From contig JBBIIG010000007.1 in NCBI GenBank assembly GCA_037446635.1, positions 67,674 through 114,818 on the forward strand: DNA of 47,145 bases, given 5' to 3'. The notes below the pieces were generated by a model. It did not search any database and was not told where the DNA came from. It worked only from the letters and a program-made list of their open reading frames with translations. Below are positions 25,726 to 42,470 of this stretch, one piece after another (the stretch's first letter is position 1; every line of letters begins with the position of its first letter). Source of the stretch: a bacterium (GTDB lineage Bacteria > Zhuqueibacterota > Zhuqueibacteria > Oceanimicrobiales > Oceanimicrobiaceae). Position numbers and translations under genes: made by a program.

Positions 25726-25996
25726 TTCTCAGCTCTGAAATTGAACGGACAAGCGCCGCAAAGCGTGATTTGGGGCTTTCAGTATCCTCGGTATTTAAGT
25801 TCTATTTTTTTCAAAATAAAATTGAACAGAACATGCGCTTGAATTTTAGAGAAGCGAATCCTCCTTACATCCCCCCTTGAGAGGCAGAAAACCAGGACAG
25901 GATAAGCAAGGAAAGGGGAATACGTGTTGGGAGGTTCACAATAAATCAACTTTGAGTTTACAACAATTTAAAGAACCTCGAGTCCAAGGAGGAAAT

Positions 25997-28900
25997 ATGC
26001 GCTCTCAAATCGTCTCCCGAGTTTCTGCGCTGTTATTTGCGGTATTATGGTTTTCAGGATTGCCTTTCACCGCAGTCTGGGGGCAGACTGTTTTCATCAA
26101 TGAAATTCATTACGACAACACCGGCACCGACGCCGGCGAAGCCATTGAAATCGCCGGCCCAGCAGGCATGGATTTGACCGGGTGGAGCATCGTTCTCTAT
26201 AATGGCGCAACTGGACTGACCTACGACACCGATGCCTTGAGCGGGACCATCCCGGATCTCTGCAACGGCTTTGGTGTGGTGGTGCTGACCTATCCCGTCA
26301 ACGGCATTCAGAACGGTTCACCGGATGCCATCGCGTTGGTGGATGCCTCGAACACCGTCATCCAATTTTTGAGCTACGAAGGGACGTTTACCGCTTTGAA
26401 TGGTCCAGCCAATGGCATGACCAGTGTGGATATCGGCGTTTCGGAAGTCGGCACAGAGCCACTGGGGCAGTCACTCCAGCTCACTGGTACCGGGTGCTCT
26501 TACGGAGATTTCACCTGGAATTCCCCGGCGGCCGCCAGCTTTGGCTCTTGCAACAGCGGCCAGACCTTTACGACCAACATCACATTTTCACAAGCCAGTT
26601 ACCAATATAATGAAGATGGGGCGGCGGTCGGCGCGGTTGTTACCGTCAATCGCAACGGCGACCTCAGCGGAACCGCCAGCGTCGATGTGCAATTCACCGA
26701 TGGCTCGGCGACCGGCGGCGCAGCGCTGGGGCCGGGCGTCGATTACGTCAGCACCACTCAGACCATCAACTTTATCGCCAATCAAGCCAGCCAGACCGTC
26801 ACGATTTCAATCAACGACGACTCAGACCTGGAGGGTGACGAAACCTTTGTGGCGACGTTAACCAATGTGATCGGCGCCTGTATCGGCGCGAACGATATGG
26901 CTACGATTACGATTTTTGACAACGAAGCCCCTCCCTCCGTGGCGTTTACGCAGGCGAGTTACCAGTATAATGAAGATGGCGTAGCCGTTGGCGCGACGGT
27001 CGCTGTCACGCGCACCGGCGAAGTCAGCGGAACCTCCAGCATTGATGTGCAATTCAGCGATGGTACGGCCACCGGCGGCGCGGCATTGGGGGCCGGCATC
27101 GATTACATCAACACCACGCAGACCATCAATTTCATCGCCAACCAAACTCTTGCCGCGGTCAGCATTTCAATTAACGACGATGCAGATTTTGAGGGCAACG
27201 AAACGTTCACGGTAACCCTCGCCAATCCGGTGAGTGCGGTGATTGGTTCGCCCGGCACGGCAACCGTCACCATTTTAAATAATGATGAGCCGCCCACGCC
27301 GGTTGTGATCAACGAGTTGGATTCCGATACCCCGGGCACGGACGCGCTCGAGTTTGTGGAGTTGTATGACGGCGGCGCCGGCAACACGCCGCTGGATGGC
27401 TTGGTGCTGGTTTTCTTCAACGGCTCTACCGATCTTTCTTATGCGGCATTTGATCTCGACGGTTTCAGTACCGACGCCGACGGCTTTTTCCTCATCGGTA
27501 ACAGCGGCGTCACACCAACGCCAAGTATAATCTTCGGCGGCAACACTCTTCAAAATGGCGAAGATGCTGTGGCGTTGTACCTGGCGAACGCTTCCGATTT
27601 TCCTACCGGCACGCCGGTAACCACTTCGCTGCTGGTGGATGCCATTGTGTATGACACCAACGACCCGGACGATCCGGGACTGCTGGTGTTATTGAATCCC
27701 GGCCAGCCGCAAGTCAATGAGAACGGCGGCGGCGATGGCCCCAATCACTCCAACGCCCGCGTTCCCGATGGCGGGATTCGGCGCAACACCGACACCTATG
27801 TGCAGCAAGCCCCAACTCCCGGCGTCAGCAATGTCCCGCCGATTGTGGTCGCCGAGATTTTCGAGATTCAGGGCGCCGGTTTAACCAGCCCGTTGGCTGG
27901 CCAGACGGTAACCTCCAATGATAACATCGTCACGGCGGTTGGCCTCGATGGCTTTTTCATGCAAACGCCGGACGCCCGCGCCGACGCCGATGCCAATACT
28001 TCCAACGGCATTTTCGTATTTACGAACTCGGCACCGACGGTGGCCGTGGGCGACAACGTGAGCGTCACTGGCCTCGTGCAGGAATTTTTTAATTTCACGG
28101 AATTCAGCAGCAACCCGGCGGTGGTGGTGAATTCCAGCGGCAACCCCCTGCCCGCGGCGGTGCAGTTTGATAGCAGCACGCCTTCGCCCTTTCAGCCGCA
28201 ATCGGCCGTAGAGCTGGAGCGCTTTGAGGGGATGTTGGTCGAAATCGCCTCCGGATTGGTGAGCGGGCCTAATCAGCGTTTCGGCACCGATCCCCTGGCC
28301 GAAGTGCACATCGTCGCTGGCCACCCGCGCGCTTTCCGCGAACCGGGCATCATTTTTCCGGGGCTGCCCGGTTTGCCCGTTTGGGATGGCAACCCGGAGG
28401 TGTTTGAACTCGACCCCGACCGGCTCGGCTTACCCAACGCTGCCATTCCCGCCGGCTCGACGTTTCAAGCCACGGGGGTTCTTGGGTTTGAATTCAGCGG
28501 ATACGAGCTGTGGCCAACCCAGCTCACCTTTGATGCAGCGACAATTCTCCATCCTGTGCGCGCCCGCGAGGATGGCGAATTCATGGTGGCCACTTTCAAC
28601 ATGGAGCGCTTTTTTGATGACGTGGACGATCCCGCTATTGATGATCCGGTACCGACGGCGTCGGAGTACGCCGGCATTTTGAGCAAGTACTCTCAGTACA
28701 TCCGCGAGGTGCTGCTCGCGCCGGATATTCTCGCAGTGCAGGAGGTGGAAAATCTCAACGCGCTGCAGGATTTGGCCGCGCAAATTCAAAGCGACGACGC
28801 GAGCCTCGTTTACAGCGCCTTTCTCGAAGAGGGCAACGACGTTGGCGGCATCGACGTGGGATTTTTAGTACGCAACACCGTGACCGTGAATTCGGTGACC

Positions 28901-30247
28901 CAATTGCACAAAAGTGAAATCTTCACCTTCGATAATTCGCTACTGCATGATCGCCCGCCGCTGCTCGCAGAAGTCGAAGTGCCCGACGGCCGCGTTTTAA
29001 CGTTGATGAACCTGCACCAGCGCTCGTTCAGCGGCATCGAGGGCCCGGACTCCACCCGCATTCGGCTCAAACGCCACACGCAAGCGGTTTCTGTCTCCAA
29101 GATGGTCGATAGCCTGCAAACTGAAAATCCCAATATCAACCTGATTGTCTTGGGCGATTTCAACTCGTTCCAATTTACCGATGGCTACGTGCACGTACTC
29201 GGTCAAATTATGGGAACGCCCGCCAGCGCCAGCGAAGCCCTGATTCCCGGCACCGATGAGGTCGATTCCGATCTGCGCAACGAGGTGTTAGAGCTGCCTA
29301 CCAATGAGCGCTACTCGTTCGTTTTTGGCGGCAGCGCGCAGGTGCTCGATCACATTTTGACGTCGGAAAAAATACAGGGCAAAGTGACCGGCCGGCAGTA
29401 TGCACGAGGTAACTCGGACGCACCAGCTTTGTTTAAAACCGATTACAGCACCGTGCTGCGCGCCTCGGACCACGATGCCATGGTTCTTTACCTTGATCTC
29501 ACCGCCCCGGAAATCGTCGTCAACGCGCCGGTTGAAATTTGGCCGCCCAATCACATCTATCATACCTTCGAGACCACAGATTTTGTGCAATCCGTCAACG
29601 ATCCCGACTTATCGGTGGCCGACGTGTTCATCACCTCCGTCACCAGCGATGAGGCTGTCAATGCGCCCAATTCTGGCAATACCGCGAACGATATCGTGAT
29701 CGTGGATTGCCAAACTGTAAAGTTACGCGCCGAGCGCGTGGGAGACGCGAATGGGCGCGTTTACACCATTTACGTCGCTGCCGTTGACGCCAACGGTAAC
29801 GTGGGTTCAGCTGCTTTTCAGGTTCAGACGCCGATTGATCAATCTGGCAGTCCGGTGATTGACGATGGCCCAGCCTATGAAGTGCAGAGCGGTTGTAGCG
29901 CACCCAATGCCCCGATACTTGCGGCCAAGGATTCCGACGCCCAACTACAGGAATCGACGTTCGTGCCGGCCGCATTTGCTTTGGCGCAAAACTACCCGAA
30001 CCCGTTCAACCCCAGCACCACCATCCATTTTGACGTGCCTCAAACTGGCGACGTGACGCTGTCGATTTACAACTTGCGCGGACAATTGGTGCGCACGCTG
30101 GTTTCGGGGGTCGTCGCCGCCGGTCGCCATCAAATTTTGTGGGATGGCGCGGACGAGCGGGGAGTACACGTCGCCAGCGGAATTTATTTATACCGCCTGC
30201 AAGCAGACGGCTTTACGGCCATTCGTAAATTAGTTTTGACGAAATGA
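25997..30247 (+). CDS. Secreted ExeM/NucH-like EEP nuclease/phosphatase with 2 lamin-tail-like domains, 2 Calx-beta, OB-fold and CTD
   Basis: VFINEIHYD and VVINELDSD domains; Calx-beta duplication at 360-bp period; EIQG..SP OB-fold; ATFN, QEVEN, GDFN, LDHIL, SDHD motifs; NYPNPFNP; ATG25997 after AGGAGG. Confidence 0.85.
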   Translation: MRSQIVSRVSALLFAVLWFSGLPFTAVWGQTVFINEIHYDNTGTDAGEAIEIAGPAGMDLTGWSIVLYNGATGLTYDTDALSGTIPDLCNGFGVVVLTYPVNGIQNGSPDAIALVDASNTVIQFLSYEGTFTALNGPANGMTSVDIGVSEVGTEPLGQSLQLTGTGCSYGDFTWNSPAAASFGSCNSGQTFTTNITFSQASYQYNEDGAAVGAVVTVNRNGDLSGTASVDVQFTDGSATGGAALGPGVDYVSTTQTINFIANQASQTVTISINDDSDLEGDETFVATLTNVIGACIGANDMATITIFDNEAPPSVAFTQASYQYNEDGVAVGATVAVTRTGEVSGTSSIDVQFSDGTATGGAALGAGIDYINTTQTINFIANQTLAAVSISINDDADFEGNETFTVTLANPVSAVIGSPGTATVTILNNDEPPTPVVINELDSDTPGTDALEFVELYDGGAGNTPLDGLVLVFFNGSTDLSYAAFDLDGFSTDADGFFLIGNSGVTPTPSIIFGGNTLQNGEDAVALYLANASDFPTGTPVTTSLLVDAIVYDTNDPDDPGLLVLLNPGQPQVNENGGGDGPNHSNARVPDGGIRRNTDTYVQQAPTPGVSNVPPIVVAEIFEIQGAGLTSPLAGQTVTSNDNIVTAVGLDGFFMQTPDARADADANTSNGIFVFTNSAPTVAVGDNVSVTGLVQEFFNFTEFSSNPAVVVNSSGNPLPAAVQFDSSTPSPFQPQSAVELERFEGMLVEIASGLVSGPNQRFGTDPLAEVHIVAGHPRAFREPGIIFPGLPGLPVWDGNPEVFELDPDRLGLPNAAIPAGSTFQATGVLGFEFSGYELWPTQLTFDAATILHPVRAREDGEFMVATFNMERFFDDVDDPAIDDPVPTASEYAGILSKYSQYIREVLLAPDILAVQEVENLNALQDLAAQIQSDDASLVYSAFLEEGNDVGGIDVGFLVRNTVTVNSVTQLHKSEIFTFDNSLLHDRPPLLAEVEVPDGRVLTLMNLHQRSFSGIEGPDSTRIRLKRHTQAVSVSKMVDSLQTENPNINLIVLGDFNSFQFTDGYVHVLGQIMGTPASASEALIPGTDEVDSDLRNEVLELPTNERYSFVFGGSAQVLDHILTSEKIQGKVTGRQYARGNSDAPALFKTDYSTVLRASDHDAMVLYLDLTAPEIVVNAPVEIWPPNHIYHTFETTDFVQSVNDPDLSVADVFITSVTSDEAVNAPNSGNTANDIVIVDCQTVKLRAERVGDANGRVYTIYVAAVDANGNVGSAAFQVQTPIDQSGSPVIDDGPAYEVQSGCSAPNAPILAAKDSDAQLQESTFVPAAFALAQNYPNPFNPSTTIHFDVPQTGDVTLSIYNLRGQLVRTLVSGVVAAGRHQILWDGADERGVHVASGIYLYRLQADGFTAIRKLVLTK

Positions 30248-30262
30248 TTTTGTAATAAACGT

Positions 30263-30325
30263 GGGGCTGTCCAAAAAGTCGATTTTTGTTGAATGTTATG
30301 CCCGCATACTTTTGGCGGGCATCCA
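30263..30325 (+). repeat. Composite repeat: GGGGCTGTCCAAAAAGTCGA leader plus REP-like hairpin
   Basis: Leader similar to 19803-19829 (minus); hairpin TGTTATGCCCGC..GCGGGCATCCA similar to 17651-17682. Confidence 0.6.
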
Positions 30326-30338
30326 GGCTCCTGTTAAA

Positions 30339-30372
30339 ACGTGCCACGTGCTTTCAAAAGTGCGTGGCACGT
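30339..30372. repeat. Palindrome (REP-like or terminator)
   Basis: ACGTGCCACG-TGCTTTCAAAAGTG-CGTGGCACGT followed by ATTTCTTTCTT. Confidence 0.6.
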
Positions 30373-30383
30373 ATTTCTTTCTT

Positions 30384-30400
30384 CTGGCACTGTTGTTGCA
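30384..30400 (+). promoter_or_regulatory. sigma54 (-24/-12) promoter upstream of the phytase operon
   Basis: CTGGCAC-TGTTG-TTGCA with exact GG-N10-GC spacing, about 120 bp upstream of ATG30523. Confidence 0.7.
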
Positions 30401-30522
30401 AAAATTAAGTCCACCAATCCAATTCTAATCTCGACGGGAGGTTGCCAATTACCATTTTGGTAGTTTTTACTTGGCAAACAGTTACGAAATGGCAAGTCAC
30501 AACCAAAGGAAAGGAGACCTCG

Positions 30523-31878
30523 ATGCGCACCCTCGTGACTCAAACCGTGTTTTTCCTTGTGGCAATGGCAGGCTTAGCACACGCGCAGATTGTTTTTCCG
30601 GTGGCAAGCACCTCGCAAACACCCGACAGCGCCGACGACCCGGCCATTTGGATTCACCCCACCGACGCCGCCAGAAGCGTTATCATCGGCACCGACAAAA
30701 GTGCCGGCATCTTTGTTTGGGATTTGAACGGCAGCTTGCTGCAGCACTTGCCGCAGGGGACGAGCTGCAACAATGTGGACGTTCGCTACGCCATCCAATT
30801 GGGCGGTGAGCTGGTGGACGTGGTGGCGACCAATCTCCGCAGCGCTGGTAAACTGGCGGTATTTAAAGTTAACCCCAATTACACCAGCGGTGACGTGCTC
30901 ATTCAAATTGCCGATCGCAACAGCGCGAACAACAACATCCAACGCAACAGCTACGGCCTCGCGCTTTATCGCCGCCCCTCCGATGGCGGATTGTATCTGT
31001 TCGAGAAACCCGAGGGCAGCGGCGGCGAAGTGCGCCAATATCTGATTGCCGATGACGGCGCCGGCGGAGTTACGGTGACCGCCGTTCGCGATCTGAACTA
31101 TAACGGCGATCAGGCGGAAGGGTTTGTCGCCGATGACGAGCTGGGTTTCATCTACATAACGGAAGAGGGCCAGGGGATTCATAAATATCTCGCCGATCCG
31201 GATATGAGCAGCGAGCGCATTTTGTTATTTGCCACCGGCGACGGCATCAGCGGCGATCGCGAGGGCCTGGCGCTGTATGCCTGCGACAACGGCGCCGGCT
31301 ATCTGCTGTTGTCGAGCCAGGGAAATTCAACCATCAAAATTTATGAGCGTCAGGGAAACAATCAGTTTCTCAAAACCGTTGAACCCAGAAATCAAAATGG
31401 GGGTGGCGACTTGGGCACTGATGGCTTGGACGTAACCTCGTTTGCCGCGCCGCCGCTTTTTTCACAGGGGTTGGTGGTTGTGCACGACGACCCCGGCCGG
31501 CGATTTCACATTTATGACTGGGCCGATTTTGCGCAAAATGATCTCAACATTTGTGTGAACGGCTTGCCAACCGCGGTTGCAGAGAAGGAAATTCTGCCAA
31601 GCCAATTCCAATTGGAGCAGAACTACCCCAATCCGTTCAATCCCAAAACCACCATCTCGTACTTCCTGCCCAATACGATGGAAGTGACGTTGGCGATTTA
31701 TAACTTGCGCGGCGAATTGGTTCGCACGCTGGCCGCCGGCGCAACGACGGCTGGCCGCCACCAGGTGGTTTGGGACGGCGTCGATGAAAAGGGCGTCAGC
31801 GTCGCCAGCGGAATTTATATCTATCGCTTGCAGGCAGAGGGGTTGGCGGTTAGCCGCAAACTGGTGTTGGCAAAGTGA
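30523..31878 (+). CDS. Secreted beta-propeller phytase with CTD
   Basis: ADDPAIWIHP, IIGTDK, NNVDVRY, YGLALY, AEGFVADD, DREGLALY, SSQGNS, TDGLDVT; ATG after AAGGAG. Confidence 0.92.
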   Translation: MRTLVTQTVFFLVAMAGLAHAQIVFPVASTSQTPDSADDPAIWIHPTDAARSVIIGTDKSAGIFVWDLNGSLLQHLPQGTSCNNVDVRYAIQLGGELVDVVATNLRSAGKLAVFKVNPNYTSGDVLIQIADRNSANNNIQRNSYGLALYRRPSDGGLYLFEKPEGSGGEVRQYLIADDGAGGVTVTAVRDLNYNGDQAEGFVADDELGFIYITEEGQGIHKYLADPDMSSERILLFATGDGISGDREGLALYACDNGAGYLLLSSQGNSTIKIYERQGNNQFLKTVEPRNQNGGGDLGTDGLDVTSFAAPPLFSQGLVVVHDDPGRRFHIYDWADFAQNDLNICVNGLPTAVAEKEILPSQFQLEQNYPNPFNPKTTISYFLPNTMEVTLAIYNLRGELVRTLAAGATTAGRHQVVWDGVDEKGVSVASGIYIYRLQAEGLAVSRKLVLAK

Positions 31879-31912
31879 TCTTCGGAAATCTTTTTTTGAA
31901 TAAATTTGGGAG

Positions 31913-33517
31913 ATGAACATGAAACCAAGAGCATGGATTGCACTCCTCGCTGCGGCGTTGGTTGGCCTCCTCGCCAGCACCGAAGCATTTTCGCAGCGGG
32001 TAGTTCGGGGGCCCTATTTACAGATGGGAACTCCCACCAGCGTGGTTGTCCGCTGGCGCACGGATGTTGCCACCGACAGCCGAGTCAACTACGGCGTAAC
32101 GTTGAATAACCTGAATCTTTCCGTTCAAAGCTCCAATTCTACTACTGAACACGAAATCCGATTAGACGGACTCAGCGCCGATACCAAATATTTTTTTTCG
32201 GTCGGTACCAGCTCGCAGGTTTTGGCCGGCGATAATGCCGATCATTTTTTTGTTACCTCGCCGCTGCCGGGAACACCCAAGCCAACTCGCATCTGGATTT
32301 TAGGCGACGCCGGTACCAAAAATAGCAACCAGCGCGCCGTTCGCGATACCTACTACAATTTCACCGGTTCGCGCCATACGGACCTTTGGCTGATGTTGGG
32401 TGACAACGCCTACGACGACGGCGAAGACTCCGAGTACCAGTTGGCGGTGTTCGAAAACATGTATGAAAACATGCTGACTAAATCGGTCTTGTGGGCAACC
32501 CGCGGTAATCACGACCGCGACGTTAGCACCTATTATAGTATTTTCACGTTTCCAACCAACGGCGAGGCCGGCGGACTGGCTTCGGGTACCGAAGCTTATT
32601 ATTCGTTCGACTACGGCAACATTCATTTCATTTGCCTCGAATCCACCTCCAGTAGTTTGCGTTCAGAAAACAGCCCACAATGGACCTGGCTGGAAGCGGA
32701 TCTGGCAGCGAACGATCAAGACTGGACGATTGCTTTTTGGCACCATCCACCGTACAGCAAAGGCTCGCACAATTCCGATAGCGAAAGCGAACTCATCCAA
32801 ATGCGCGAGCGGGCAGTAACCCGACTGGAGGATGCCGGCGTGGATTTGGTGTTTACCGGCCACAGCCATTCTTACGAGCGCTCCTTTTTGCTGGATGGCC
32901 ATTATGGCAATTCCGGCTCTTTAACCAGCGCCATGATTTTGAACAACGGCAGCGGCCGCGAAGACGGCGACGGCGCCTATAAGAAAGCGACCCTCGGCTC
33001 ATCGCCGCACGAGGGCGCGGTGTATGTGGTGGCTGGCAGTTCCGGCAAAACCAGCAGCGGTTCTTTGAACCATCCGGCGATGTTCTTCTCTCTCAAGAAA
33101 TTGGGATCGGTGGTACTGGATATCAACGGCAACCGCGCCGACGCCAAATTCATTGATGATGCCGGAGAGGTGCGCGACTATTTCACCATCATCAAAGGCG
33201 CCCCCACTGGCGTGGACGAGCCGCCGGAGGTTTTGCCCGTGCAAATTGTTTTGAGCCAAAACTATCCCAATCCGTTTAATCCCAGCACCACCATCACGTA
33301 TAGCTTTTCTAGGGCTGGGGAGGTGACATTGGCCATTTACAATATGCGCGGCGAGTGGGTGCGCAATTTGGCTGAAGGCGCCATGCCGGCGGGCCGCTAC
33401 CAGGCGGTGTGGGACGGCACGGATGCGAATGGCGCACGGGTGGCCAGCGGCGTGTATCTCTGCAAGCTGCAAGTCAACGGAGTAAGCGCCTCGCGCCGGC
33501 TCGTACTGGCAAAATAA
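31913..33517 (+). CDS. Secreted purple acid phosphatase-type metallophosphoesterase with CTD
   Basis: RGPYLQ N-domain; GDAG, GDNAY, GNHD, HHPPY, GHSHSYER motifs; NYPNPFNP. Confidence 0.92.
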   Translation: MNMKPRAWIALLAAALVGLLASTEAFSQRVVRGPYLQMGTPTSVVVRWRTDVATDSRVNYGVTLNNLNLSVQSSNSTTEHEIRLDGLSADTKYFFSVGTSSQVLAGDNADHFFVTSPLPGTPKPTRIWILGDAGTKNSNQRAVRDTYYNFTGSRHTDLWLMLGDNAYDDGEDSEYQLAVFENMYENMLTKSVLWATRGNHDRDVSTYYSIFTFPTNGEAGGLASGTEAYYSFDYGNIHFICLESTSSSLRSENSPQWTWLEADLAANDQDWTIAFWHHPPYSKGSHNSDSESELIQMRERAVTRLEDAGVDLVFTGHSHSYERSFLLDGHYGNSGSLTSAMILNNGSGREDGDGAYKKATLGSSPHEGAVYVVAGSSGKTSSGSLNHPAMFFSLKKLGSVVLDINGNRADAKFIDDAGEVRDYFTIIKGAPTGVDEPPEVLPVQIVLSQNYPNPFNPSTTITYSFSRAGEVTLAIYNMRGEWVRNLAEGAMPAGRYQAVWDGTDANGARVASGVYLCKLQVNGVSASRRLVLAK

Positions 33518-35467: not shown

Positions 35468-35869
35468 TCAACTGTTGCCGCGGGCGGCAGCGGCGATGCT
35501 TTCAAAAAGATTAATCAGATTTTGAACTTCTGTATCCAGTGCAGATTTGGTGTCTTTGGGCACCTCCCCGTAACCGCGCAAGGGTTCGGATTTGCAGTCC
35601 TCCAGCATTTCCCACAAACGGGACACACGCACTTGAATCGCCCACACCGGATCGCGTCGCCGCGGGTTAGGAATTTTAAAGCGCGAACGGAATTCTTTCA
35701 CCTTTTGACGCGCGCCTGCGATCTTCTGCAAAACGGCTTGACTCCGTTCCGCTGGCAGTTGCGCATTGGCGATGATCTGAGTGAAATCGTTTAAGGTCTG
35801 TTCCACGATTTGCAAAACAGAGGAGAGCGCCCGCCGATGATTATCGTTTAGTTCAATTTGTTTATTCAT
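35468..35869 (-). CDS. Small helical hypothetical protein
   Basis: 133-aa ORF, ATGA-coupled to the upstream gene; LNDNHRR and LRGYG motifs. Confidence 0.7.
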   Translation of the reverse strand: MNKQIELNDNHRRALSSVLQIVEQTLNDFTQIIANAQLPAERSQAVLQKIAGARQKVKEFRSRFKIPNPRRRDPVWAIQVRVSRLWEMLEDCKSEPLRGYGEVPKDTKSALDTEVQNLINLFESIAAAARGNS

Positions 35870-36784: not shown

Positions 36785-37951
36785 TTAATTTTTGTTTCCA
36801 TTCACCATCGTTACCGCTTGGTCAATTTCTTTGGTTTCGATGAATTCCATTTTGGGTTGGAACCAGCGCTGGGCGATCACGGTGGGGATGATCGCACTTA
36901 GCACGACCGTGGCCACCAGCACCGAAAATTGCGCCTGATTGATATACCCCGCCTGCAATCCAAACACCGATGAAATCGTTCCCATCGTCAGGCCAGTGCT
37001 CATCAGCAGGGTGGTGTACATGGCGTCTTTGGGAACGTACTTTTTAGCAAACGGGTAGGTGCCGATGAGTTTGGGAATTTGTTTGACCAGCAGCATCTGC
37101 ACCAGCAAGCCAAAATTCGCGAGCAGAAGTTTGAGCGAGACGTTCATGCCGCCGTTGATGAAGAAAAACGGCGTGATAAAAGCAAACGCCACCACCCGCA
37201 GCCGGCGCTGCAGCAGGCGATTGGCGCTGAACATCTTGCTGAGCACCAGGCCGAAAACAAACGCCGGCAAAATCGCGTGGCTGGCGCCGAGTTTGGCCAA
37301 CGCCATGAAAATAATGAGAATCAAAAACAGAAATTTGATTTCCGGTTCGATCACGCGGTCGCCGTAGCGCTGGAAAATTTTTGGCGCCAGGCGGGGCGCC
37401 GCAGCGATGACCGCTGTTGAAAACACCAGAAAAACCAATGTAAGCCAGGTGAATTCGATAAACAACAAGCTCAACGCAATGGCCGTTCCCATATCAGTGA
37501 CGAAACACGAGGCCATGATGATCTTGCCGATTTTGGTTTCGGTGAGGCCAGTTTCAACCAGCACCGCATAAACGACAGCCAGCGAAGTGGTAGAAAGCGC
37601 GACGCCGGCGACTTTGGCGGCCTCGGGCGTCCAGCCCAAAACATAGTAACAGTAGGCCATCGCTCCAAGAAATGGCGCCAGAAACGAGGCGAGGCCGATG
37701 AGAAAGCTTTCTTTGAATTTCTCTTTCATCACCGCCGTATCCACTTCGGCGCCGGCGAGAAAGGTGAGCAAAATGCCGCCGAAGCCGGCGAAGAACGTGA
37801 TCCACGGCGTCGGCTGCAAACCGAGAAAATTGCCCCCAATGACGCCCAGCGAAATTTCTATGATCGCCACCGAGAGGCCAAATTCTACCGAAACCACGCT
37901 CGCCAGCAGAATGAGTACCCATAAAATAACCGAAAGCAACTGTTCGTTCAT
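36785..37951 (-). CDS. Cation:proton antiporter (Na_H_Exchanger, CPA2-like)
   Basis: About 12 TM segments; LLTFLAGAE, ALSTTSLAVVY, FVTD, TPFFF, MSTGLT.G; GGAG RBS. Confidence 0.9.
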   Translation of the reverse strand: MNEQLLSVILWVLILLASVVSVEFGLSVAIIEISLGVIGGNFLGLQPTPWITFFAGFGGILLTFLAGAEVDTAVMKEKFKESFLIGLASFLAPFLGAMAYCYYVLGWTPEAAKVAGVALSTTSLAVVYAVLVETGLTETKIGKIIMASCFVTDMGTAIALSLLFIEFTWLTLVFLVFSTAVIAAAPRLAPKIFQRYGDRVIEPEIKFLFLILIIFMALAKLGASHAILPAFVFGLVLSKMFSANRLLQRRLRVVAFAFITPFFFINGGMNVSLKLLLANFGLLVQMLLVKQIPKLIGTYPFAKKYVPKDAMYTTLLMSTGLTMGTISSVFGLQAGYINQAQFSVLVATVVLSAIIPTVIAQRWFQPKMEFIETKEIDQAVTMVNGNKN

Positions 37952-37981
37952 GCAGAACTCTCCAGATAAAGTTTAGTCAGA

Positions 37982-38030
37982 GTCGAAGCGGGTCATCAAC
38001 TCCATCCTTTGGGGTTGCGACCTCCCCAAA
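37982..38030 (-). ncRNA. Candidate second cis-regulatory RNA (pseudoknot; possibly a chrB-type orphan motif)
   Basis: TTTGGGG-AGGTCGCAA-CCCCAAA stem-loop whose loop can pair with downstream TGATGACC or TTCGAC. Confidence 0.5.
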
Positions 38031-38032
38031 CT

Positions 38033-38080
38033 AAAAACTCCTACCCTCGAAATAGGAATCCTATTTCAAAAGTAGGAGTT
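38033..38080 (-). terminator. Intrinsic terminator forming the riboswitch expression platform
   Basis: AACTCCTAC-TTTTGAAATAGG-ATT-CCTATTTCGAGG-GTAGGAGTT-TTT; the 5' arm is the 3' pseudoknot strand of the aptamer. Confidence 0.8.
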
Positions 38081-38133
38081 ATCAACCCGTCCGATTAAAA
38101 TCGGAACAGATGTTAAAGGCGAACTCCATCACC
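38072..38133 (-). ncRNA. Fluoride riboswitch (crcB motif)
   Basis: GGTGATGGAGTTCGCCTTTAAC..(stem TCCGATT/AATCGGA)..GTTGATAACTCCTAC: P1 GGTGA/TCGCC, pseudoknot GGAGTT/AACTCC, terminal TAC. Confidence 0.92.
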
Positions 38134-38148
38134 GGTTTTTGGGGCGAA

Positions 38149-38177
38149 AAGATAGTGAATGAAATGGAAAAAAGCAA
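38149..38177 (-). promoter_or_regulatory. sigma70-type promoter of the riboswitch operon
   Basis: TTGCTT-17 bp-TATCTT ending 15 bp upstream of the aptamer. Confidence 0.65.
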
Positions 38178-38263
38178 GCAACATTCTTTTTATTTTTCAT
38201 TTCACCTTGTTTGTCTGTATGTAATACTTGAACTTAGAAATGACCATTGTAACTGGTGACACT

Positions 38264-40402
38264 ATGACTAAACAGTTTGTATTAGGCACTATGGCTGCCT
38301 TTTTTCTCTTAATTTCCTTCGAAAGAGTCTTTGCGTCTCAAGATTGGATTTGGCAGAATCCCCTTCCCCAGGGAAATAATTTGTATGGTGTATTTTTCGT
38401 CAACCCCGATACCGGCTTCGTGGTGGGCGGCGAAGGCGTCATCCTCCGTACCAACGACGGCGGCCAGTCCTGGACGCCGCAAATCAGCGGAACCACCAAC
38501 TTTCTGCGAGGAATCTATTTTACCGGTACCAACCGCGGGATAGCGATTGGCATTCAAGGGACCATTTTGCGCACTACCAACGGCGGACAAACCTGGACGT
38601 CTCAAAATTTGAACACCAATAAATCGGTGCGGGGCGTCTTTTTCAGCGACGCCGTCACGGGCACGGTGGTGGGAGAAGACGGCATCATTTTTCGTACCAA
38701 CGACGGTGGAACGAACTGGCAACCACAGGAAAGCGGCACCACCAAGTGGCTGCGTTCGGTTTCATTTATCGACCGCGAAAAAGGAGTGGCGGTGGGCGGC
38801 GGCGGCGTCATCATTCGCACTTCCAACGGCGGCGCCACTTGGGACAGCCGCCAAAGCGGCACCGACGTGGAGTTGCTGGGTGTCTCATATACAACCGATG
38901 ACGTGGTGGTGGCGGTCGGCCGAGAGGGTACCATTCTCCGTTCTACCGATGGCGGAAAAAGCTGGAGTCCACAAGAAACCGGCACCACCCGCGCTCTCCG
39001 CGATGTGTTTTTCACTCACCCGGATAGCGGCACCGCGGTGGGAAGCGCTGGCTGGATCCTGCGCACCAATGACGGCGGCCAGACCTGGGTTCGGCAAAGA
39101 AATGGCATCCGATCGTTGGACGCCGAGCTGCGGGCGGTGCAATTCTTGAATTCTCAGCTCGGCTTTGTTGTTGGTTTTGACGGCACGATCTTGCGCACCG
39201 ACAACGGCGGCGAGGAATGGGTGAACTTTTTGGAGGGCGTCACCGAAGACCTGAACGCCATTGCCTATTTGGATACCAGTTCCGCCTACGTGGTGGGAGA
39301 TAACGGCGTCATTCTCAAAACCACCAATCATGGCCGCGAGTGGATTCCACAAGCGAGCGGCACCAGTATGGATCTGAACAGCATCGTTTTCAATGAGTCT
39401 GGAACAGGCGTAACGGTGGGAGAGCGGGGCATCATTCTTCTCGCGGTTGATGGCGAGACCTGGAACAATCAGCCCAGCGGGACCACTCGGAATCTCAACC
39501 ACGTTCTGTTCACCAGCAGTTTCGGGATCGCAGTCGGTGATAGCGGCGCAATTTTGCGAACAACTACCGGCGGTTTGACCTGGAACACGGTCAGCAGCCA
39601 TACCACCGCCAACCTGCGGCATGTGCATTTTTCCAATAATTTTACCGGAACCATCGTCGGCGATTCGGGGACCATTTTGCGCTCCTTGTCCGGCGGCGGT
39701 CAGTGGTCGGCACAACAGAGCGGCACCACGGCTAATTTAAATGGGGTGTATTTTTTTGACGATCGCAGAGGCATAGTAATTGGCAGTGGCGGAATGATTC
39801 TCACCACCAGCAACGGCGGCACCACTTGGAGTGTGCTGCCCAGCGGAACGGACTACGATTTGATGCGAGTTTATTTTTATACCGCCAACCGCGGCATTAT
39901 TGTCGGTAGCCATCCGGTGCAGGAGCAGGGTGGGCTCATTCTGCGGAGCGAGGACGGCGGCGCCACGTGGTCGCCGGAGGCCAGCGGTACTTTCAAAGAT
40001 CTGTTCGATGTCGCCGTCTGCAGCGACGGCTCGGCGACGGTGGTGGGTGAGAGCGGCGCCATTCTTTTCAAAAAAAATTTTGACACCGTCGTGAGTGTGG
40101 ATTCCCCACCGCAACCAGCGAATTTCACCCTGTTTCAAAATTACCCCAATCCATTCAACCCCTCCACAATCATTAGCTACCAATTGGATGACTTTGCGCC
40201 CGTGCGATTGGTCATTTTCAACGTGTTGGGCCAAAAGGTAAGAACTCTGGTAAACTCCCGCCAGCCCGCAGGCCGCCACCTAGTGGAGTGGAATGGGCAG
40301 AACGATGACGGCGTGGTCGTTCCCACCGGCGTGTATTTTTGCCGTTTGGAAGCTGGTTCGGGCCAGCTAAGCAAGATCATCAAATTAGTGTTATTGAAAT
40401 GA
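38264..40402 (+). CDS. Secreted YCF48/BNR-repeat beta-propeller protein with CTD
   Basis: 14 repeats of about 42 aa (VG..G.ILRT.DGG.TW..Q.SGT..L..V.F); NYPNPFNP CTD. Confidence 0.88.
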   Translation: MTKQFVLGTMAAFFLLISFERVFASQDWIWQNPLPQGNNLYGVFFVNPDTGFVVGGEGVILRTNDGGQSWTPQISGTTNFLRGIYFTGTNRGIAIGIQGTILRTTNGGQTWTSQNLNTNKSVRGVFFSDAVTGTVVGEDGIIFRTNDGGTNWQPQESGTTKWLRSVSFIDREKGVAVGGGGVIIRTSNGGATWDSRQSGTDVELLGVSYTTDDVVVAVGREGTILRSTDGGKSWSPQETGTTRALRDVFFTHPDSGTAVGSAGWILRTNDGGQTWVRQRNGIRSLDAELRAVQFLNSQLGFVVGFDGTILRTDNGGEEWVNFLEGVTEDLNAIAYLDTSSAYVVGDNGVILKTTNHGREWIPQASGTSMDLNSIVFNESGTGVTVGERGIILLAVDGETWNNQPSGTTRNLNHVLFTSSFGIAVGDSGAILRTTTGGLTWNTVSSHTTANLRHVHFSNNFTGTIVGDSGTILRSLSGGGQWSAQQSGTTANLNGVYFFDDRRGIVIGSGGMILTTSNGGTTWSVLPSGTDYDLMRVYFYTANRGIIVGSHPVQEQGGLILRSEDGGATWSPEASGTFKDLFDVAVCSDGSATVVGESGAILFKKNFDTVVSVDSPPQPANFTLFQNYPNPFNPSTIISYQLDDFAPVRLVIFNVLGQKVRTLVNSRQPAGRHLVEWNGQNDDGVVVPTGVYFCRLEAGSGQLSKIIKLVLLK

Positions 40403-40489
40403 CGGCAGAATTCTTGGTCGTCAATGTTCGAGGTCTTTTCAATTTTTGACGCCAGCCGTTCGTTCGCTGCCCTTATCTCATTTTTTTCC

Positions 40490-40517
40490 TTGCAAAAATT
40501 TCAGCTTTTGCTAAACT
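40490..40517 (+). promoter_or_regulatory. Promoter of corA (extended -10), probably leaderless transcript
   Basis: TTGCAA-16 bp-TAAACT preceded by TGn; ATG 7 nt downstream with no SD. Confidence 0.55.
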
Positions 40518-40523
40518 TTTGAT

Positions 40524-41588
40524 ATGTCAAACAAGAAAGCACAACGTGCTCGCAAAGCCGGCCTCTCGCCGGGCACGCTCATTCACATCGGTGAGAAAAA
40601 AACCGCGCAGGTGAAAATCACCCTGATGGATTACGATGAAAGCCATTTGGAAGAGAAAGTGATCCAGCGGGTGGAGGAGTGTTTTCCGTTTAATAACACC
40701 TCTTCGGCCACCTGGCTGCAAATCAACGGGCTGCACCAGGTTGAGGTGATCAAAACCCTCGGCGAGCGTTTCGGCATTCATCCGCTGGTTTTGGAAGACA
40801 TCCTCAACACCGAGCAGCGCCCCAAAATGGAGGACTTCGAGCAGTACATTTTTGTGGTGTTGAAGATGGTGGATTTTGTCGAGGGCAAAATTGAAATCAC
40901 CGCGGATCAGCTCAGCATCGTTTTCGGGTCGAATTTTCTGATCTCGTTTCATGAACGCGAAAACGGCGTGTTCCAGTCGGTGAAGGAACGAATCCGCAGC
41001 GGCAAAGGCCGGCTGCGAACTCGCGGCGTCGATTACCTCGCCTTCGCGCTGCTGGACTCGGTGGTGGACCACTATTTTGTGATCCTCGAGACCCTGCAGC
41101 AGCGCATTGAGGAATTGGAAGATCGTCTGATCGCCGATTCCGATTCATCTTCGATTCAGGAAATTCACGAGCTGCGGCGCCTGGTAATTTTACTGCGCAA
41201 GTCAGTTTGGCCGCTGCGGGAGCTCATCGCCGGGCTGCAAAGATTGGAGACGCCGCTGGTCACCGATTTCACCGACGTTTACTTGCGCGACCTTTACGAT
41301 CACGTGGTGCAGGTGATCGACACCGTCGAAACCTACCGCGAGCTGCTTTCCAGCATGGTGGAAATCTATCTCACCGGCATCAGCAACCGCATGAACGCGA
41401 TCATGAAAGTGCTGACGATGATCGCCACCATTTTCATCCCACTGACATTTATCGCTGGCATCTACGGCATGAATTTCGAGTACATGCCGGAGCTGGAGTG
41501 GCGCTGGGGTTACCCGGCGGTTGGGTTGGTGATGCTCCTGATTGGCGCGGCGATGCTGGTTTACTTCAAACGCAAAAAATGGCTTTAA
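40524..41588 (+). CDS. corA: Magnesium/cobalt transporter CorA
   Basis: GLSPGTL, HPLVLEDILNT.QRPK, GIYGMNF, MPEL.W.WGY. Confidence 0.96.
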   Translation: MSNKKAQRARKAGLSPGTLIHIGEKKTAQVKITLMDYDESHLEEKVIQRVEECFPFNNTSSATWLQINGLHQVEVIKTLGERFGIHPLVLEDILNTEQRPKMEDFEQYIFVVLKMVDFVEGKIEITADQLSIVFGSNFLISFHERENGVFQSVKERIRSGKGRLRTRGVDYLAFALLDSVVDHYFVILETLQQRIEELEDRLIADSDSSSIQEIHELRRLVILLRKSVWPLRELIAGLQRLETPLVTDFTDVYLRDLYDHVVQVIDTVETYRELLSSMVEIYLTGISNRMNAIMKVLTMIATIFIPLTFIAGIYGMNFEYMPELEWRWGYPAVGLVMLLIGAAMLVYFKRKKWL

Positions 41589-41600
41589 GCGGAGGCGCAC

Positions 41601-42470
41601 ATGACGTTTGAGGAACTGCTGTCCCTCATCGAGAAAATTTTTGCGTATCAACTGTTCACCATCAAAAGCACGCACGTGACCGTTTCCTCACTGCTGATGT
41701 TTTTTCTGGTGATGGTGGGGTTTCTGGTGTTGTCCCGCGTTTTTATTAGAATATTTTTGAGGAAGCTGCTTGCGACCTTCAAGCTCGAACAATCGACCCA
41801 ATATGCTTTGGGCCGCATCACCCATTACATTATTCTGGTGGTAGGCGCCATCGTCGCCTTTCAGTTCATCGGCATCGATTTGAGCGGGCTGATGGTGGTG
41901 TTCGGGTTTCTTTCGGTGGGCATTGGATTTGGCTTGCAGAACCTCACCTCAAATTTTATTTCGGGTTTGATTCTGCTGTTTGAGCAGCCCATCAAAGTTG
42001 GCGACCGCGTGACCGTTGGCAACACCGAAGGCGACGTGGAGGAAATCAACATGCGCTCCACCACCGTTCGTTCTCTGAATAACATCGCGATTATCGTTCC
42101 CAATTCTGAGTTTATCTCTTCCACGGTGGTGAACTGGTCGCACAGCGATCTGCGCATCCGGCTGGATATCGACGTCGGAGTTTCGTATGACTCGGATCTC
42201 GATCTGGTTTTGCGATCGCTGCGCGAGGTGGCGGAGGAAAATTCTGAGGTGTTGAAAGAGCCCAAACCGGAGACCCTGTTCATCGAGTTTGGAGACTCGT
42301 CGTGGAATCTTCGTTTGCGGGTTTGGATTAACGATCCGAAACGTCATCAACAGGTGCGCTCGGATATCAACTGCGCTATCGTGCGTAAATTCCGCGCGAA
42401 TAAAATCGAGATTCCCTTTCCGCAGCGCGATCTGCACATTCGCTCGCCGCTGGTTGTAAATCAAACGTAG
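41601..42470 (+). CDS. mscS: Small-conductance mechanosensitive channel (MscS family)
   Basis: VGIGFGLQN...NFISG.ILLFE.PIKVGD, IIVPNS, VGVSY, IEIPFPQRDLH. Confidence 0.92.
   Translation: MTFEELLSLIEKIFAYQLFTIKSTHVTVSSLLMFFLVMVGFLVLSRVFIRIFLRKLLATFKLEQSTQYALGRITHYIILVVGAIVAFQFIGIDLSGLMVVFGFLSVGIGFGLQNLTSNFISGLILLFEQPIKVGDRVTVGNTEGDVEEINMRSTTVRSLNNIAIIVPNSEFISSTVVNWSHSDLRIRLDIDVGVSYDSDLDLVLRSLREVAEENSEVLKEPKPETLFIEFGDSSWNLRLRVWINDPKRHQQVRSDINCAIVRKFRANKIEIPFPQRDLHIRSPLVVNQT

Follow-up and report, generated by a model that had tools for sequence, protein, structure and literature searches.

The leader of an operon that encodes a cation:proton antiporter and a universal stress protein (USP) in this bacterium most likely consists of a single transcriptional fluoride riboswitch followed by a deletion scar that carries the 3' half of a dead second fluoride aptamer (aptamer B), a reading to which we assign a probability of about 0.8. 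A deletion would have fused the interior of aptamer B to the ribosome-binding region of a dynamin-like gene that is no longer present. For the resulting scar, folding predicts a single long hairpin 5' of the Shine-Dalgarno sequence, which would sense nothing and serve as passive leader sequence. The features are listed in Table 1, with positions counted in the window, the whole stretch of 47,145 nucleotides that was analysed.

Table 1. Features of the antiporter leader and operon, in the order of transcription.
Feature	Position	Strand	Details
Putative sigma-70-type promoter	38149..38177	minus	-35 TTGCTT 38177-38172, 17-nt spacer, -10 TATCTT 38154-38149
Fluoride (crcB) aptamer A	38072..38133	minus	P1 38133-38130/38121-38118, pseudoknot 38127-38123/38079-38075
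Intrinsic terminator	38028..38079	minus	20-pair stem 38079-38037, then interrupted U run
Likely ribosome-binding region of lost dynamin-like gene	38021..38037	minus	Supplies the 5' arm of the 7-pair stem
Putative deletion junction	37998..38020	minus	Alignments
Likely 3' half of aptamer B (P2 stem, conserved UGAUGAC)	37982..38014	minus	P1 absent, pseudoknot strand short
Spacer and Shine-Dalgarno sequence (37963-37958) of antiporter	37952..37981	minus	Resembles spacer behind aptamer B in relatives
Cation:proton antiporter, 388 aa, CPA2-like	36785..37951	minus	PF00999, E 1.8e-36
Universal stress protein (USP), 144 aa	36351..36785	minus	PF00582, E 3.9e-30
Zinc-ribbon/HEAT-like protein, 144 aa	35866..36300	minus	Weak Pfam matches under cut-off
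133-aa protein, end of operon	35468..35869	minus	No family assigned

The first-pass annotation had described the upstream part of the leader (element 1) as a minus-strand promoter, a canonical crcB aptamer and a terminator that sequesters the 3' strand of the aptamer, and this description held throughout. The promoter hexamer pair with its 17-nt spacing recurs 5' of the aptamer in six of the seven relatives examined, making a sigma-70-type promoter likely from the sequence, and the list returned by a scan for consensus promoters did not include the TTGCTT/TATCTT pair of this leader. The Rfam model RF01734 matched 38142-38066 with 36.3 bits, compared with a gathering score of 34, and was the sole Rfam family matched in the whole window; all pairs of P1 (4/4, with an 8-nt loop) and of the pseudoknot (5/5, loop to 3' strand) can form. 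The pseudoknot 3' strand of aptamer A is also the start of the 20-pair terminator stem, the fold of aptamer and terminator together has a z of -6.8, which none of 200 shuffles equalled, and the same terminator layout is present in the related loci L011, L004 and L027. Element 1 is therefore supported by its sequence as an ordinary single transcriptional fluoride riboswitch placed before the antiporter and USP genes.

Element 1 is similar to the B. cereus type of RF01734 in having P1, the pseudoknot and a terminator based on the pseudoknot 3' strand, and it differs in its longer P2 insert, in its interrupted U run and in preceding a CPA2-like antiporter and a USP instead of an exporter of the Fluc/CLC kind. 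The B. cereus riboswitch, in which the pseudoknot 3' strand likewise forms the terminator base, is of the transcriptional ON type according to the accessible text of PMC11077080. By analogy, the terminator would displace the pseudoknot in the absence of fluoride and transcription is predicted to stop at 38037; in its presence, the pseudoknot would be held against terminator invasion, with read-through as a consequence. Because of this analogy we infer that fluoride turns on the antiporter, the USP and the two small genes behind them. The fluoride riboswitches form a validated class. That they often stand before antiporters, as had been stated in the first-pass annotation, was seen directly in the loci collected here.

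The second element, at 38030-37982, has exactly the letters that had been reported for it, and it had been interpreted as a second sensor or protein-binding RNA, in which a 7-pair stem presents a loop with two alternative pairing partners in a pseudoknot-like form. A 7-pair Watson-Crick stem with two 4-pair loop partners occurred in 9 of 2000 shuffles, and in 232 of 2000 when G-U pairs were allowed in the stem, the pattern having been picked after it was seen in the sequence. In nested folding, however, the 7-pair stem was a minor fold (-8.8 kcal/mol, pair probability of approximately 0.14) compared with one long hairpin (-13.9 kcal/mol, pair probabilities of 0.7-0.86), the outer helix of which is the very pairing between loop and GACC that had been drawn before; the folding program scores nested pairs only and leaves pseudoknots unscored, so that there is still room for a pseudoknot in the second element. 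The stability of the 61-nt element was ordinary, with a z of -1.5 (21 of 200 shuffles, and 70 of 1000 in a second run).

Comparison with known RNA families provided no counterpart. At E ≤ 10, Rfam returned only two snoRNA fragments (12.2 and 9.7 bits) over the second element and, besides the fluoride aptamer, only chance matches of the miRNA/snoRNA type over 37900-38230; RF01734 gave no match on the second element at the same threshold, and a model built for the lineage (R1) gave 4.6 bits over 8 nt. The leader precedes a cation/proton antiporter gene, as the nhaA-I, nhaA-II (Li+) and DUF1646 (Na+) riboswitches do, but the corresponding models (RF03057, RF03038 and RF03071, the last named Sodium/DUF1646) matched nothing on the contig of the window at E ≤ 10. 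Neither chrB-a nor chrB-b was matched at E ≤ 10 when all 4227 Rfam families, which presumably include their models, were scanned. The earlier proposal of a chrB-a/b relationship is disfavoured by the context: both are small cis-regulatory candidates, but the chrB motifs are described, in the accessible part of PMC5737381, from alpha-Proteobacteria upstream of chromate-resistance genes, whereas the second element, without an Rfam match, lies in a probable KSB1-group genome before an antiporter and a USP. According to the accessible text of PMC7657543, chrB RNA contains a pseudoknot.

The likeness of the second element to a fluoride aptamer is best accounted for by the 3' half of aptamer B. When 38035-37952 was aligned with the B regions of related loci, the score was 55 with L004 and 42 with L027, neither of which was reached by any of 2000 shuffles, and these two were the best of 129 leaders. 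The distance from the conserved GAC to the start codon is 40 nt in the window compared with 41, 41, 41 and 42 nt in four intact B copies, and the 23 nt ending at this GAC are identical to B of L004 at 18 of 23 ungapped positions, the best agreement among 84 aptamers. Thus, the alignment score and the position together indicate descent from a fluoride aptamer. As in RF01734, a P2-like stem and UGAUGAC are kept; unlike RF01734, the element has no P1, its pseudoknot strand is shorter by two letters, and it does not pass the covariance model. In the alignment with intact B, the P1 region falls into a gap and the pseudoknot 3' strand is two letters short, so that neither the conserved 5' GAUG P1 nor the five- to six-pair pseudoknot of a fluoride aptamer is present.

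The homology to B, as judged from the sequence, is modest and leans on position. For the 5' end of the element (38035-38015) there is no alignment with B beyond chance (1680 of 2000 shuffles did as well), the core alone was equalled against B of L027 by 156 of 2000 shuffles, and for the spacer alone the scores with L004 and L027 were reached by 19 and 106 of 2000 shuffles, respectively. A profile of the four B regions placed the second element fifth genome-wide with an E of 6.1, the 25 best matches of a general aptamer profile did not include it, and L055, a fluoride leader that is unrelated, aligned with the element at a score of 40. Also against the scar reading is a G-C to A-U change in the P2 remnant relative to L004. 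The 5' end has a different likely source, namely the ribosome-binding region of the dynamin-like gene: 38021-38037 agrees at 15 of 17 positions with the sequence leading up to the dynamin start remnant of L011, from the same genus, which is the best of 76 post-terminator 17-mers. The exact junction point cannot be fixed because the stretch between these two parts resembles the dynamin start and the P2 of aptamer B alike.

The related loci supply the arrangement from which such a scar could have come. In the six closest orthologues of the antiporter, with 89-93% protein identity (L011 and L027 over most of the length, L004 and L006 over 82 aa, L123 and L173 over 150 aa), intact aptamer B lies directly before the antiporter gene in four and is absent in two (L006 and L011). 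The Rfam score of B is 45.6 bits in L004 and 34.8 bits in L027, and that by model R1, the training set of which contained neither locus, is 43.1 bits in L173 and 48.1 bits in L123. B is probably translational in these relatives because it has no terminator and lies approximately 30 nt before the Shine-Dalgarno sequence. The longest layout, that of L027, consists of two successive aptamers, each with a terminator, a dynamin-like GTPase gene (602 aa, PF00350), aptamer B without a terminator, the antiporter and the USP. L004 has aptamer A, its terminator, a remnant of the start and end of the dynamin gene, intact B and the antiporter, and L006 and L011 have aptamer A, the terminator and a dynamin remnant without B; L006 keeps pieces of the start and end of the dynamin gene, as L004 does. 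In the genome of the window, which is 97% complete, no relative of the dynamin-like protein was found by tblastn, and three weak N-terminal PF00350 matches were set aside as probably belonging to other GTPases.

The arrangement in L004 is the likely forerunner of the leader in the window. With aptamer A brought directly upstream, B may have become redundant, which is the situation in which a tandem aptamer is expected to vanish (PMC9481103, accessible part), and it would have been lost wholly in L006 and L011. A nucleotide tree of 12 gene starts left six of nine inner branches open and does not give the order of events, and only the different breakpoints suggest separate losses. Some irregularities were also seen in these loci: L027 has a one-base frameshift at 2457-2500, near the antiporter start, which may be a mutation or an assembly error; the genome G055 has two copies of the antiporter start (L004 and L006, on C70 and C81), both at contig ends and with different leaders; and transposase-like sequence appears, by eye, upstream of both of these copies.

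Conservation of the second element was evaluated in leaders of orthologous antiporters, collected from 52 loci in genomes and the best 80 of 163 in metagenomes. The 129 leaders of up to 300 nt comprise 48 of the 52 genome loci (four without a gene start were omitted), L004 and the 80 metagenome loci; the genomes searched include two flagged as unpublished (G163 and G159), and the positive claims rest on neither. The loop or core motif of the second element was found in none of the 129 leaders, and a fluoride-aptamer-like pattern was present once in 90, twice in 1 and absent in 38. The annotation had named a lack of conservation of 38030-37982 among orthologous leaders as what would speak against its proposal, and this is largely what was observed; moreover, the one near-identical contig breaks the stem. 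Recurrence with covariation, which would mark a new conserved RNA motif, was not seen, that contig being the only recurrence found. As a DNA query against 166 other genomes of the phylum, the element gave only short matches, the best with an E of 0.017 over approximately 20 nt; the DNA search of the 167 phylum genomes is insensitive at such distance because B of L004 was not recovered by it. A degenerate pattern of the shared core found only the loci of the window, L004 and L027 among 202, and was built from these three. A DNA pattern of the gene start of the orthologue gave no match in metagenome contigs.

The near-identical contig, of 581 nt, covers 37641-38218 with the same junction as the window and is identical in sequencing runs X1 and X2, so it was counted once; run X4 covers the flanks and hardly the second element, run X3 is without the leader, and a search among sequencing runs gave no RNA run. 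The contig differs from the window by 17 substitutions, of which 15 are listed and underlie the following counts, and by one insertion. The 49-nt element has four changes and the 98 nt that make up aptamer A and its terminator have one (Fisher p 0.04), and the density of changes in the element compared with the rest of the contig gave a p of 0.06. The single change within aptamer A and terminator keeps its pair, and the variant breaks a pair of the 7-pair stem, the probability of which is 0.00-0.05 on either reading of the insertion. Read literally, the contig extends the long hairpin to -24.4 kcal/mol compared with -19.8 kcal/mol (2 of 1000 shuffles, z -3.3), with one pair replaced on both sides; with the insertion shifted by one place, the energy is -19.0 kcal/mol. 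Random changes of the same number matched the hairpin stability of the contig in 225 of 3000 trials, and neutral decay from its form gave the energy of the window in 1315 of 3000. Loose ends in X1 and X2 suggest that a further copy, of the L027 type, exists.

These results bear on several other explanations of the second element. The same scar may have been retained as a ligand-independent long hairpin (approximately 38022-37991) that tunes the stability or translation of the read-through mRNA, which we regard as unlikely. The strongest, if thin, argument for retention comes from the contig of X1 and X2, in which the hairpin is preserved and lengthened on the literal reading, and the hairpin does dominate the predicted ensemble. 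However, the contig is a single independent sequence, random change and neutral decay reproduce the energies at the rates given above, the form in the window is not more stable than its shuffles, and L006 and L011 do without the hairpin. In addition, templated mutation can improve the pairing of imperfect inverted repeats. A stronger version, in which the broken aptamer and what remains of the ribosome-binding sequence have folded anew into a working hairpin that responds to a ligand or protein, so far in one small KSB1 lineage, appears very improbable to us; if it were true, the working scar would be a regulatory RNA born from a broken riboswitch.

We consider it highly improbable that, as originally proposed, the element is a second aptamer or a pseudoknot that binds a protein and gives two-input control, be it a specificity variant that arose from B or not. 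The strict 7-pair stem with its two loop partners is uncommon among shuffles, UGAUGAC is kept in the window and tandem layouts occur in the lineage, but the element recurs in none of the orthologous leaders and has no better match in the other genomes of the phylum than the short one above, its stem is a minor fold that nearly disappears in the variant, no Rfam model including those of nhaA-I/II and Sodium matches it, and both of its halves have a simpler origin, with intact B at the same spot in four of the six closest orthologues. That the element is an unrelated spacer, like B only by chance, is a view of similarly low probability: the weak genome-wide profile value and the weakness of core and spacer, taken separately, against L027 would suit it, but the joint alignment score was never reached by shuffles, the two best of the leaders are close orthologues and the spacing agrees within 1-2 nt. 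The reading as a deletion scar behind a single fluoride riboswitch is thus retained, with the caution that a riboswitch-like sequence that follows a riboswitch can represent a degraded copy.

The relatives of this leader record how a tandem can arise through loss of the intervening gene (L027 to L004) and then collapse (the window, L006 and L011). Two loci, L027 at 187-440 (G162, C194) and L105 at 3417-3150 on the minus strand (G135, C325), have tandem fluoride riboswitches in which each aptamer has its own terminator; with 33.6 and 33.9 bits, their second copies fall just below the Rfam cut-off, and P1 and pseudoknot pair fully in both. At 1198-1500 of L004 (G055, C70), an aptamer A of the terminator type (50.7 bits) and the terminator-less B, both above the Rfam cut-off, are 138 nt apart, a likely bi-mechanism tandem that formed when the dynamin gene between them was lost. 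R1 matched 42 of 125 genomes of the class, and three (G162, G135 and G055) had two matches with starts within approximately 210 nt of each other. These three loci are comparable to the tandem riboswitches for one ligand, pseudo-cooperative or bi-mechanism, treated in the accessible part of PMC9481103, whereas the window has one complete aptamer only. Fluoride is among the classes not found in tandem in Table 3 of that source, and the tandem pair in the accessible text of PMC8814607 is engineered; the supplement of PMC12452182 (Tables S8, S11 and S12), however, counts 10 tandems among 1418 fluoride riboswitches, so that natural tandem fluoride riboswitches are rare but already catalogued and the idea that they were unreported was dropped. 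The accessible parts of PMC12667848, PMC8814607 and PMC11777429 contain nothing bearing on the second element.

In 10 different genomes or records (L027, L102, L103, L079, L083, L091, L094, L106, L059 and L018; 13 of 152 aptamer-pattern rows, duplicates included), the gene for a dynamin-like GTPase is preceded by a fluoride aptamer at a distance of up to 230 nt, with L109 as a weaker eleventh. A literature search for a fluoride riboswitch together with dynamin found no mention, in a collection that lacks most subscription titles, among them the paper that first described the class. The tandem switches and this aptamer-dynamin link may merit more attention than the second element itself.

Regarding the genes of the operon, the antiporter, with its start codon at 37951, scored 95 bits against TIGR00932, under the cut-off of 238. 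Relatives of the zinc-ribbon/HEAT-like protein were found by tblastn in other fluoride-riboswitch operons (L100, L103, L062 and L015). The 133-aa protein had no Pfam or NCBIfam match; by tblastn, L103 and L109 encode relatives with 53% and 49% identity, located 3' of their dynamin-like genes, and the protein travels with the dynamin operons that have a fluoride riboswitch (L103, L109 and L100).

Among the other loci, six (L022, L024, L025, L028, L029 and L030) have a fluoride riboswitch and antiporter directly 3' of an RNase P RNA gene, and L052 has two fluoride-aptamer matches at 1803-2059, on opposite strands and approximately 90 nt apart, suggesting divergent operons. On the plus strand of the window, the divergent genes at 38228-42470 encode a YCF48/BNR-repeat protein with a FlgD tail, a CorA magnesium transporter and an MscS channel. 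Also on the plus strand, 25877-33517 encodes a series of secreted-type proteins whose C-terminal tails are of the FlgD/Por type, including an endonuclease/exonuclease/phosphatase with Calx-beta, a phytase and a purple acid phosphatase, a set suggestive of phosphate scavenging; it is followed by genes for an alginate-lyase-like protein and a TPR protein.
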